A stretch of 63,304 nt of DNA, counting the filler, from Reclinomonas americana ATCC 50394 (lineage: Eukaryota), in NCBI GenBank assembly GCA_048213135.1. It is 9 parts of 6 records of this genome, joined end to end, with 100 filler letters (N's around TTAATTAATTAA, not from the genome) between each part and the next. Parts side by side here need not be neighbours in the genome. Positions count along the whole stretch, not along the records: positions 50,772 to 61,521 come from PS015941.1; 8 more parts are not named here. One strand, written 5' to 3'. The translations under genes were made by a program, and so were the position numbers. The notes beneath the pieces were generated by a model, which was not told the origin of the DNA, searched no databases, and saw only the letters and a program-made list of their open reading frames with translations. How positions within the stretch are numbered: the stretch's first letter is position 1; each line of letters begins with the position of its first letter. Below, piece after piece: positions 54,285 to 61,521 of this stretch.

Positions 54285-57200
54285 ATGTCGCTTATCACTG
54301 ATGAGGAGTTGCGTGCTTCAACACACAAGGCGGCGTGTGTTGAGAGTGCTCATTCTCTTCTTCTCACACACAGGTCCAACTTTCTGCGTGCCACTCGAGT
54401 TGTGTGTGGTGTCGCTGCTCGTGCGCTGCGTGCGCTTGTGCAACGTGAACTGCCAGGATTCGTGCGCAACTGTGCGGCGGAGACGGAGGCATCGCCAGCG
54501 GGGAAATTGGAGTTGATGAAGGAGTGGATGAAGAGTTCGAAGCGGGGAGAGAGACGAGACAAGCGGTGAGTGCCCTGTGTGTGTGATCTCTCTGTGTGAG
54601 GTGTATGTCTGTCTCTCCGCCGTTCTATGCTCCTATCCCTCCGTCCTCTCGCCCTCTGCTCTCTCTCTCTCTCACTGCCTGTCTGTTTCTCAATCTCCTC
54701 TGCTTATCTCTCTCGCACACACACACACGCCCTCCTTCTCATTCCTGCTCACGTACATGAGCGTGTTAGACTTCGTGTTTGTGCCAACGTTTGGATTTTT
54801 TTTTTTGCAGGACTGCAGTTCAAGGGCTCCAGCAGGTGTTGTGTTTTGATTATGCCACGTCTGCTATGGAGGACTGGCAGCGCGCCTTGGATGCGGGCGA
54901 CCCTTGTCCCTCGTGCAGCGCGTTTGACGTTTCGTGGTTGACCACGGTTCTGCTGAACGCGCACTGGACACCGGATGCGAGTGCTGCTCCGCACGATGTG
55001 CGTCATCTCATCGCTGATGCATCGCAGGTGAGACCTCCGCGGTCGCTTGTCTCTCATTCTATCTGCACGCTTACCTGTCGGTGTGCGTGCAGCGCGACGC
55101 GATATGGAAACTGCGCGATGCAAGGAACGACCTCATGCATCGCCCGGACGTGCACCTGTCAGCCGAGAAACTGCTCGACTTTCTTGGCGATGAGCGCAGA
55201 GAAGGACGTATTGTATGCTTGTTGCAACAAGCACAGATTCCTCACGTGGACAGTTTCGAGAAGGAAATCGATACCATCCGCTTTGGTGCGTGCCGCTTTG
55301 TTTCCGTAGTTTCTGTTTACTTTGCACTCACCGCGGCTCACGCACTTTGCTGAATGACAGCTGTGTCACCACTGGGCCAAGCTGTCATGTTCAGAAACGT
55401 TGGCCAACTGGATGGGTTTCCATTCCCCAGCCGCGTCGCGGAGGCTGAGAGACTTGCTGAGCGATTGTTGGAATGCGAGGCTGGTGAGGAGACGGGTGAC
55501 TGCATCTTTTGTGTTGAATCGTTTCATATTGCTCACATGCTCTCCTGCATGGATCTTTCTTACAAGGCGAATCGCCCGGAGTGATTGTGCTCTCTGGCGA
55601 GGGTGGAAGTGGCAAGACGACACTGGCCGAGCTGATAGTGTCGGAGATGGAGCGTAGAAAGTGGCGTGGATCGGCGCTGTACTCCGACATGCGTGGTCAC
55701 ACGGTTGATGAGAGCCAATTCACATCGGTGAGTCGAACTGGATGAAGACTGTTGTGCGTGCACATTGTTTCTGATTCGATTTTTTCTGTCTCGACGCAGA
55801 CGACGGAGGTGCTCTGTAGTGGACTGCGAGGATTCGCCAGTGCCATGACATCTGTGCAATCCAACGCACAATTGTTGGCGGAAATTGAGTCGTGGGAGAC
55901 GGATGGCAATGTGGATATGATGCGCAATCGACTCGGCCACTTCATGAAGGACAGTCGCGGCTTGCTGTTGCTCGACAATGTCGGCACGGGGAAGCAGGTG
56001 CTTGATGTCCTGCGGGGAACCACTGCAGGCGCATTCTCCAGTGCAGGTGTGTGCATTTGTTGGGCTCATCAGTGACCGCATGGCGCTTCTGTGTTCTCGC
56101 GTTTCTCGTTTTTGTCTCTTGTGTGCAGCTCATCGCGTTTAAGTGGTAATATTTCTGGAAGTGCCAACCGTTGTGTTTCACTTTCACGACAGACTCAGCG
56201 CACATGGTCGCCCCGCTGGTGATTGTGACTACGCGGTTCAAGCGAGTTGTCGACGAATTGCAACGCTCTGCCTTGTTGAGCTCTGCTGTGGTGCTCCACA
56301 TGACGGTGGGTGATGTGGAAGCCGACGATGTGGCGCAGTACGTGCGCCAGCAGATTGACGCGCCGGAAGAGATCTGTCGTGAGGTGACGGAGGCGACGGC
56401 GGAGAGGCCACAGGCATTCCGTGTAGCTCTATGTTTGAGGTTCGTCGATTAGTGTTTTGTTAAGTCTTGCTCTCGTTGTAGATTGTTGACTGGGTGCATG
56501 CAGCATGCTCGGACGACAGTCGTTGGAGACGCTGGCCAGCAGCGAGCTGCAGGCACGATTGGCGGAGACGCGAGAATTGGCATTGGAGGAGCTGATGAGC
56601 AAGAATCTGGCGGAGTGCACGCCTCTCATGAGACAAGTGCTGCTCTTGGTTGCAGCGCTCCAGCAAATGCGCATGCATGTCACGACTCGGACAGTGGCAT
56701 TATTGGTTCGGTTAATGGGAGGCGATTCTCATCCAGCGTCTCAAGATTGGCTGCGAGTGCTCGTGGTTCAAGGGAGAGTTGATACGTACAGTGATGACGA
56801 CGGCGATGGTGTTGTTCAGGCACTTGAGTTTCTTCGGCGGTCAATGTTGGTGCAGTGCACGATGTCACAGTCATGCGACACGCTGTATCGAATGGTGGTG
56901 GCTGGCGGAGCATTGTCGCCATCGAGAGTGGAATATGGAGTGCACGACCTCGTGATGGAGTGGCTGACGTCGGGGGATCGTGAGATTGAGCTGTGTCAGT
57001 ATCGTGATGCGGTGTTGGATATAGTTCTGTGTGGACTGGCTTGGGCTGACGAGTACAGTATCGACGATATCATGCTGCACGACATTCGGCCGTGTCTGCA
57101 GCTGTTGTGGAATGGGCTATTGCCGGTGTTGCAGCGTGGAGGGGGCGAGAGCAACACGCCACCTTCTGTGACTAGGATGCGACTGAACGGCGTGTCAAAA

Positions 57201-60200: not shown

Positions 60201-61521
60201 GCAGACACACTACGGTCCATGAGCAACCTCGCCGTCTGCATCAAGGAGAGCGGCAATCTCGACGAAGCCGAGCGACTGTATCGAGAGGTGTTGGTGTTGC
60301 AGCGTGAGGTGCTTGGTGACAGACATGCAGACACACTGCGGTCCATGCGCAATCTCGCCAGCTGCATTCAGGCGAGTGACAATCTCACCGAAGCCGAGCG
60401 ACTGTATGGAGAGGTGTTGACGTTGAGGCGTGAGGTGCTTGGTGACAGACATGCAGACACACTGCAGTCAATGTACAGTCTCGCCAGCTGCATGCACGCC
60501 AGCGGCAGCCTCACCGAAGCCGAGCGACTGTATAGGGAGGTGCTGGAATTGCAGCGTGAGGTGCTTGGTGACAGACATGCAGACGTACTGCGGTCCATGT
60601 ACAGTCTCGCCAGCTGCATGCACGCCAGTGGCAATCTCGTCGAAGCCGAGCGACTGTATCGAGAGGTGTTGACGTTGCGGCGTGAGATGTTTGGTGACAG
60701 ACATCCAAGCACACTGCAGTCCATGCACAATCTCGCCAGCTGCATGTACGCCATTGGCAATCTCGCCGAAGCCGAGCGACTGTATCGAGAGGTGTTGACG
60801 TTGCGGCGTGAAGTCCTTGGTGACAGACATGCAGACACACTGCGGTCAATGCACAGCCTCGCTAGCTGCATGCATGCCAGCGGCAATCTCGCCGAAGCCG
60901 AGCGACTGTATCGAGAGGTGTTGACGTTGCAGCGTGAGGTGCTGGGTGACAGGCATGCAGACGTACTGCGGTCCATGCACAATCTCGCTAACTGCATGTG
61001 CGCCAGCGGCGATCTCGCCGAAGCCGAGCGACAGTATCGACAAGTGTTGGATTTGCAGCGTGAGGTGCTTGGTGACGGACATGCAGAGACAATGCGGTGC
61101 ATGCACAGTCTCGCCAGCTGCATCTACGCCAGTGGCAATCTCGCTGAAGCCGAGCGACTGTTTCGGGAGGTGTTGACGTTGCAGCGTGAGGTGCTTGGTG
61201 ACAGACATGCAGACACACTGCAGTCAATGTGCGACCTCGCCAGCTGCATTCAGGCGAGCAGCAATCTCGTCGAAGCCGCGCGACTGTATCGACAGGTGTT
61301 GACGTTGCAGCGTGAGGTGCTTGGTGACAGACATCCAAGCACATTGCAGTCCATGCACAATCTCGCCAGTTGCATGCACGCCAGCGGCAATCTCGCTGAA
61401 GCCGAACGACTGTATCGAGAGGTGTCGGCGTTGCAGCGTGAGGTGCTTGGTGACAGACATGCCGATACTCTGCGGTCAATGTACAGTCTCGCCAGCTGCA
61501 TGCACGCCAGCGGCAGCCTCA
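54285..61521 (+). CDS. NLR-like protein: DZIP3-like HEPN domain + STAND (NB-ARC-like) ATPase + >=32 TPR repeats; 3' end in gap
   Basis: Exons 54285-54565, 54811-55027, 55093-55285, 55361-55483, 55567-55728, 55800-56046, ~56198-56439 and 56504->61521. HEPN features: SNFLRA..ALRALV..AFDVSWLTTVLLN..AIWKLRDARNDLMH (RxxxxH at 55123-55140). Walker A GEGGSGKT (55596-55619), Walker B LLLLDNV, sensor VIVTTR, and an MHD-like VHDLV. Confidence 0.9.
57442..61521 (+). repeat. 126-bp (42-aa) kinesin-light-chain-type TPR coding array
   Basis: Consensus TLRSMxNLAxCxxxSGNLxEAERLYREVLxLxREVLGDRHxD, about 32 units before the gap. Confidence 0.97.

Follow-up and report, generated by a model that had tools for sequence, protein, structure and literature searches.

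Receptors that carry a HEPN domain of the DZIP3/hRUL138 type, or of the CXorf38 type (which we take to be the family named DUF4559 in Pfam), in front of a STAND nucleoside triphosphatase (NTPase) are the closest described counterparts of a predicted gene at positions 54285-61521 (+ strand) of the stretch of DNA analysed here, which is 63,304 nt long with its fillers and is referred to below as the window. In PMC3710099, members of the DZIP3/hRUL138 family are fused with tetratricopeptide repeats (TPRs), NACHT, CARD, DEATH and leucine-rich repeats (LRRs), and the family is expanded in Nematostella, oyster and Capsaspora; the same source records the fusion of the CXorf38 family to NACHT and catalogues bacterial HEPN-STAND-ATPase-TPR proteins. 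In several cnidarians a DZIP3-like HEPN domain is the top non-LRR partner of NACHT, with 17-83 such proteins per anthozoan genome (PMC8260672), while most coral NB-ARC proteins have TPRs and N-terminal DZIP3-like HEPN domains are frequent (PMC10236652). DUF4559 is found in 45 of 99 NLRP members in clam (PMC8298618), and bacterial NACHT proteins employ HEPN ribonucleases (RNases) as one kind of enzymatic effector (bioRxiv 10.1101/2022.07.19.500537). As an architecture, HEPN-NACHT or HEPN-NB-ARC-TPR is already known from cnidarians, corals, molluscs and bacteria. In our literature search no DZIP3-type HEPN-NB-ARC-TPR protein was described from outside animals, save a mention of Capsaspora; the literature retrieved on HEPN_DZIP3 dealt with amphioxus or clams, that on HEPN, NB-ARC and TPR together dealt with bacteria, and nothing was retrieved on HEPN NLRs of protists.

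The gene in the window probably encodes an NLR-like STAND receptor composed of a HEPN head (amino acids (aa) ~25-230), an NB-ARC-like NTPase (aa ~256-650) and at least 32 TPR units (from aa 819). From the profile and neighbour searches described below, we also judge it probable that the head is of the DZIP3/hRUL138 or CXorf38 (DUF4559) type, with its R-N-x3-H motif intact. Here we show the exon structure of the gene, the order of its domains, its NB-ARC-like motifs and its TPR array; the receptor architecture is likely, and an RNase and immune function is what we infer by analogy. Similar to the HEPN NLRs of cnidarians, corals and bivalves, the predicted protein would carry a HEPN/DUF4559 domain of the DZIP3 type in front of its STAND NTPase, and in corals, as here, the NB-ARC class mostly has TPRs (PMC10236652). 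In the ESM Atlas, exons 2 and 3 likewise lie next to mollusc-dominated DZIP3-HEPN/DUF4559 clusters. In contrast with these animal receptors, the N-terminal domain lies under both Pfam cut-offs when scanned per exon, and aa 491-790 have no NOD relative in a phmmer search of 1.84 billion representatives. It should be emphasized that the locus, a truncated predicted gene model, is a candidate and not a discovery.

Without splicing, the region contains a single long open reading frame (ORF; 56490-61577), upstream of which lie several short ORFs in differing frames. Joining eight exons yields a 6487-nt frame of 2162 aa that contains no stop, in agreement with the initial annotation of this DNA, which had proposed seven short exons spliced onto a long TPR exon. 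Translation starts at the first ATG downstream of an in-frame stop (54207-54209), and all seven introns have GT...AG borders. Splicing is needed because in six of the seven introns read-through in the frame of the preceding exon would end at a stop after no more than 1-33 codons, and because in intron 2 the upstream frame is open throughout yet is not the frame of exon 3. A codon-usage model, trained on a WD40 exon and a HECT exon from elsewhere in the window and on the pre-TPR part of exon 8, ranked the chosen frame first of six in every one of the seven short exons, and the T+C content is 0.54-0.71 in the introns versus 0.47 in the exons. Alternative GT-AG pairs that keep the frame occur within 30 nt at a frequency of 0-5 per junction, and thus a few junction residues of the predicted splice model are uncertain. 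The gene occupies a piece of the window (50772-61521) from whose end it runs off within the TPR array; its C-terminus is therefore absent from that piece, which counts against a complete receptor.

The N-terminal domain is distributed over the first three exons, of which exon 1 (54285-54565, aa 1-93 plus 2 nt) encodes its first helices (SNFLR...), exon 2 (54811-55027, aa 94-166) its middle, including FDVSWLTTVLLN, and exon 3 (55093-55285, aa 167-230) the candidate HEPN catalytic motif RNDLMH (aa 177-182, nt 55123-55140). Exon 4 (55361-55483, aa 231-271) supplies a linker and the helix preceding the P-loop, exon 5 (55567-55727, aa 272-325) the Walker A motif GEGGSGKT (aa 282, nt 55596-55619) and exon 6 (55800-56046, aa 326-407) the Walker B motif LLLLDN (aa 380, nt 55962-55979). 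Exon 7 (56193-56439, aa 408-489) contains VIVTTR, a sensor-1/RNBS-B-like 'TTR' (aa 417, nt 56219-56236), followed by a degenerate GLPL. Exon 8 (56504-61521), which enters the spliced frame through a GT-AG junction, opens with an ARC-like helical region bearing VHD (aa 636, nt 56940-56948) and a helical linker (56504-57488, aa 490-818) and continues into the TPR array (57489-61520), the predicted sensor; all of these exons are on the + strand. Each of the five motifs, all of which the initial annotation had listed as intact, occurs once. The spliced model runs from the N-terminal domain through the P-loop NTPase to the TPR units and so presents the tripartite effector-NOD-repeat layout of NLRs; the effector-ATPase-sensor order that had been claimed is borne out by this model, by an NB-ARC profile and by the TPR array.

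Walker A and Walker B, TTR (sensor-1/RNBS-B), GLPL and MHD are the defining motifs of NB-ARC domains (AP-ATPases), and in the spliced protein they, or their equivalents, follow one another in that order. Judged from these motifs and from profile alignment, the NTPase module (exons 4-8) is NB-ARC-like and far diverged. On exon 5, Pfam reports nSTAND3 (2.2e-5), NB-ARC (1.2e-4) and NACHT (1.9e-4), all under their cut-offs; NB-ARC (PF00931) scores 21.9 bits against a cut-off of 23.5, and nSTAND3 and NACHT score alike. A custom NB-ARC profile, built from six fetched proteins in which Pfam confirms NB-ARC-TPR and which came out of the TPR search with exon 8, matched spliced aa 256-512 with 27.2 bits (E 1.1e-7), whereas none of 999 shuffles exceeded 7.9 bits. 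The alignment, which starts within exon 4, sets GEGGSGKT on the P-loop, LLLLDNV on 'LlvlDnv', VIVTTR on 'llvTTR' and RPQAF, the degenerate yet aligned GLPL, on the 'LpLA' of the profile's 'LpLAv'. The four motifs from Walker A to GLPL thus align in their proper order, in a match that crosses three exon junctions and thereby also supports the splice model. The MHD-like VHD stands at the profile's 'rlH' position in a segment that is not significant (-3.6 bits). Two observations speak against an NB-ARC assignment: exons 6 and 7, scanned singly, gave no Pfam match, NB-ARC included, and Walker B reads D-N in place of D-D/E, its second residue not being acidic. The six NB-ARC-TPR proteins of the profile, however, likewise have D-n as their consensus here, and so the D-N is probably a trait of the clade and not a defect. 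GEGGSGKT is the only genuine Walker A of the window, and PADLOC and NCBIfam scans of the exons returned P-loop matches only. When aa 1-454 of exon 8 were modelled with AlphaFold2 (AF2) without an alignment, the mean predicted local distance difference test (pLDDT) score was 59.4; residues 1-245, which comprise the ARC-like region and linker, were below 50, and the TPRs alone were confident.

The TPR array that had been claimed for the 3' part of the gene was confirmed. Tandem Repeats Finder detects a period of 126 nt with 31.9 copies and 84% matches, and Pfam assigns TPR_12 (1180.4 bits) and TPR_10 (902.5 bits), each in 30 stretches and above cut-off. From nt 57489 onwards the array is made up of 32 tandem 42-aa units, all in perfect register and no two of them alike, with a mean pairwise identity of 75% at the protein and 82.5% at the nucleotide level. 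Thirteen unit positions are invariant; variability is concentrated at positions 1, 12, 30, 34 and 37, and is lesser at 23, 27, 36 and 38. Positions 23-27-30-34-37 are spaced i/i+3/i+4, as on one face of a helix, and in the AF2 model the variable-face residues fall in one helix per unit; by analogy to TPRs of the kinesin-light-chain type, this would be helix A, which lines the groove. The ratio of nonsynonymous to synonymous substitution rates (dN/dS), compared between units, is 0.43 overall but falls to 0.20 at the 33 framework sites, with dS ~0.36; the value of 1.85 at the five most variable sites is suggestive only, those sites having been picked post hoc for their variability. On the evidence of the dN/dS at the framework sites, purifying selection acts on the array, which is thus not in decay. 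On the opposite strand of the array (57596-61573, -) there are ORFs of 503, 523, 419 and 251 aa, among others, with a period of 126 nt; these look like by-products of the repeat and not genes.

It could be argued that the locus is no working gene, being either a pseudogene that is not expressed or a product of misassembly, chimeric or collapsed, in a repeat-rich stretch. The contig does break inside a 4-kb array of closely similar units, of a kind that short-read assemblers often mis-join. Such an origin is difficult to reconcile with 2162 stop-free codons over eight exons, with codon usage that is correct in all seven short exons, with 32 units that are all in register and all different, and with the low framework dN/dS at the dS observed, and we consider it very unlikely.

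In this part of the protein the locus resembles the fungal NB-ARC-TPR NLRs, in which the 42-aa TPRs are highly conserved and variable, positively selected sites lie on the concave face (PMC4986451). Both have an NB-ARC module followed by 42-aa TPRs in which few helix positions vary, and the custom profile that matches the present protein was drawn largely from fungal patatin-NB-ARC-TPR proteins. The mean unit identity found here (75%), however, is below the 85% criterion of PMC4986451, and that paper makes no mention of HEPN. When 8000 proteins were scored in a search with the whole of exon 8, 1269 TPR proteins reached E<=1e-20; among the 120 matches listed, none had PF18738 or PF15112 and six had PF00931.

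Whether the head of this putative receptor is a HEPN domain is the question on which its classification turns. The initial annotation had described three N-terminal patterns typical of DZIP3-type HEPN domains; NF.R and LR..RN.L.H...LS are present, but the middle one is shifted by one position, to FD.S.L...LLN. The three exons of the domain are each in a different frame, and the Pfam and ESM Atlas searches were run exon by exon on unspliced translations. Among the 24,736 Pfam models searched, DUF4559 (PF15112) matches the 64 aa of exon 3 (E 8.7e-4, 19.3 bits) over residues 6-61, which include the motif, at profile positions 149-200 of 305. As a background, when 52 translated ORFs from other parts of the window were scanned, a family reached E<=0.001 in three, two of these being the plain HECT and WD40 matches. 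In the ESM Atlas the nearest neighbours of exon 2 (72 aa), with scores of 0.94, 0.93, 0.93 and 0.91, carry PF18738 (HEPN_DZIP3) and/or PF15112; the clusters are named 'DZIP3/hRUL138-like HEPN domain-containing protein' or 'DUF4559 domain-containing protein', and all ten of the best family-bearing matches agree on DZIP3-like HEPN/DUF4559. For exon 3, DUF4559 is at rank 3 (0.84), HEPN_DZIP3 at rank 4 (0.82) and HEPN_Swt1 at rank 8 (0.77). DUF4559 can be linked to DZIP3-like HEPN because PF18738 and PF15112 co-occur on the same Atlas clusters. Exons 2 and 3 do not overlap and are independent segments. Since both of them, by two methods, point to the same related pair of families, we regard it as likely that the N-terminus is a HEPN domain, each single result being under its family threshold.

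Several results weigh against this assignment. The DUF4559 match falls short of its cut-off (19.3 versus 27 bits), no PF18738 match was obtained on exons 1-3 at E<=10, exon 1 has no Pfam family at E<=0.1 and exon 2 has no Pfam match. Atlas recognition was 1735 for exon 2 and 2254 for exon 3, both below the value of 2300 under which high scores are weak evidence, and scores below 0.9 are leads only; for exon 3, two unnamed viral clusters rank above DUF4559 and only two of the ten best family-bearing matches agree. An Rx4H motif is present in 59% of 20,000 shuffles of aa 1-231, and thus the HEPN assignment cannot rest on it; the narrower R[NDHQ]x3H is present in 14% of the same shuffles, and RNDLMH, whose arginine is followed by a polar residue as in the conserved Rx4-6H motif of HEPN domains, occurs once in aa 1-231. 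A PDB sequence search returned nothing for exon 2 and, for exon 3, HUS1 only (E 0.9), with no HEPN protein. A HEPN_Swt1 profile built from 29 of 30 fetched planctomycete loci (one lacked the motif used for picking the frame) gave the N-terminal domain 0.4 bits, which is rank 38 of the 774 scoring among 1000 sequences, and hhalign of the domain against this planctomycete profile scored 16.3, a value reached by 18 of 200 shuffles.

Taken at face value, these results could mean that the N-terminal ~230 aa are an unrelated, lineage-specific helical domain in which the Rx4H motif and the weak matches are coincidental, leaving a STAND-TPR protein with some other head. Such a reading draws on the sub-threshold standing of every HEPN result, on the frequency of Rx4H by chance, on a likeness to bacterial HEPN_Swt1 no better than that of shuffles, and on a word-index search of exon 3 against longer proteins that recovered no relative (23 candidates, none at E<=1). 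It does not explain, however, how two non-overlapping exons and two methods should arrive at the same pair, PF15112 and PF18738, among all the Pfam models, nor why these are the very families that are fused to NACHT or NB-ARC in animals (PMC10236652, PMC8298618 and PMC8260672), and in our view it is improbable. For the DZIP3 type proposed in the initial annotation the outcome is mixed: the DUF4559 match of exon 3 favours it, as do the clusters closest to exons 2 and 3 in the Atlas, but the exon-wise profile search of the N-terminus did not retrieve HEPN_DZIP3 itself, and all the support is sub-threshold.

The bacterial HEPN-STAND-TPR proteins of the Npun_F6454 group have the same order of HEPN, STAND NTPase and TPR (PMC3710099). 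In contrast with the present head, they are filed under Swt1-like HEPN, and it is the planctomycete HEPN_Swt1 profile that misses the N-terminal domain studied here. A comparison of the TPR units with genome contigs gave a single planctomycete locus. HEPN_DZIP3 (PF18738) occurred in none of 401 Planctomycetota genomes and none of 14 controls, and HEPN_Swt1 (PF18731) in 47 of the 401. Many of the planctomycete HEPN_Swt1 copies begin an open frame of ~1100 aa, and others lie in frames of ~250 aa, the context of the motif being '...ELRevRNrWAHQ...'.

If the receptor architecture with a HEPN head is correct, a mode of action can be proposed from known STAND proteins and HEPN RNases. The TPR solenoid would bind a ligand, which may be a non-self or a modified self molecule, and nucleotide exchange in the NB-ARC module would then drive oligomerisation. 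This would dimerise the N-terminal HEPN domains, whose paired Rx4H motifs could form a metal-independent RNase site, and the resulting RNA cleavage might arrest growth, kill the cell or act against viruses. In RNase L and Ire1 the activity of the KEN domain follows dimerisation or oligomerisation that is driven by another domain. These enzymes are HEPN RNases, KEN being a HEPN family in PMC3710099, and provide a working analogy only; KEN is a different HEPN family, and the switch is a kinase or pseudokinase and not a STAND module. Of the candidate immune or cell-suicide RNase receptor that had been envisaged for this locus, the NLR-like STAND-TPR body is thus supported, but the HEPN head is sub-threshold and the function would follow from analogy. 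The same architecture would also accommodate a HEPN-like head that is no nuclease, and that serves as an RNA-binding or adaptor module recruiting another effector after oligomerisation. Consistent with a role of this kind, Table 1 of PMC3710099 grades the motif of the DZIP3 family only as 'mostly conserved', and the available parts of PMC3710099, PMC10236652, PMC8298618 and PMC8260672 report no RNase or immune test of HEPN-NLRs. The R-N-x3-H motif is, however, intact in the present protein, a state that PMC3710099 ties to active RNases, and a non-nuclease head appears unlikely to us.

Relatives of the gene were sought within the window and beyond it. A tblastn search of the window with spliced aa 1-640 found only the gene itself, the next best match (E 0.083) being antisense to the TPR array, and neither a second Walker A gene nor a paralogue was found within the window. 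The 330 aa that precede the TPRs had no relative in a word-index search (length class 919-2926), and a metagenome scan with the pre-TPR region found none. A phmmer search with aa 491-790 (ARC-like region and linker) against 1,835,955,588 representatives gave no NOD homologue and one artefactual match, and phmmer of the NTPase region against 121 fetched proteins likewise found nothing save a repeat artefact. The artefactual match, P0001, is a protein of 1105 aa with 11 repeats of an 83-aa period; it was rejected as a relative, because it matches query residues 263-299 alone, a 37-aa pre-TPR stretch, through 11 repeats worth ~1 bit each. Two metagenome loci retrieved with exon 3 were also discarded as chance 'GDERREGRI' matches in out-of-frame, high-GC bacterial DNA.

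We suggest tentatively that the gene might come from a non-animal, probably unicellular, eukaryote, and could thus be a DZIP3/CXorf38-type HEPN-NB-ARC-TPR receptor outside Metazoa; aa 491-790 have no relative in the phmmer search, and the TPRs diversify like the repeats of fungal NLRs. The G+C content around the gene (54-58%) and the lengths of its introns (64-245 nt) are unlike those of a cnidarian or a mollusc. Were this origin correct, HEPN-armed NLRs would either predate animals or have moved between distant eukaryotes, the known range of the receptor class would be widened, and a tractable single-cell system would be at hand in which to ask if a HEPN RNase is activated when an NLR oligomerises. 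Corals, anemones and bivalves have many HEPN-headed NLRs, and a diverged copy in a compact, short-intron genome may offer a convenient construct with which to ask whether STAND oligomerisation activates the RNase.

Because the window strings together separate contigs, proximity across a spacer is no genomic evidence. Eight artificial spacers, each of 44 N, 12 bases and 44 N, lie at 7298-7397, 20045-20144, 22155-22254, 30986-31085, 33312-33411, 43504-43603, 50672-50771 and 61522-61621. The last of these (no strand), which ends the piece that holds the gene, reads N44 + TTAATTAATTAA + N44, the 12 bases being a six-frame stop linker. Beyond it, on the next contig piece, is an open frame with several hydrophobic stretches (61622-62625, -); since the receptor gene runs off its contig within the array, this ORF is no established neighbour. 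No Pfam family reached E<=0.001 in the interval 61700-62325, and scanning the window for Rfam families and tRNAs returned nothing. A weak ARM_ARMC5 match at 16084-16419 (+; E 3.4e-4, 20.5 bits versus a cut-off of 79.9) could be due to chance. An ORF piece at 4033-4959 (+), which lies on a different contig piece, contains a HECT ubiquitin-ligase domain (E 1e-13) and presumably represents an exon of some other gene. A 355-aa open frame at 41336-42400 (+) encodes a WD40 beta-propeller (WD40 E 1.5e-64) and, as there is no P-loop nearby, is no obvious second NLR. Microsatellite-like low complexity of the CT/GA and CA types is very abundant (8225-8809, 13425-15277, 23605-24845, 52486-53713, 62594-63304 and elsewhere) and yields long spurious ORFs that read SLSLSL, ERERER or HTHTHT.

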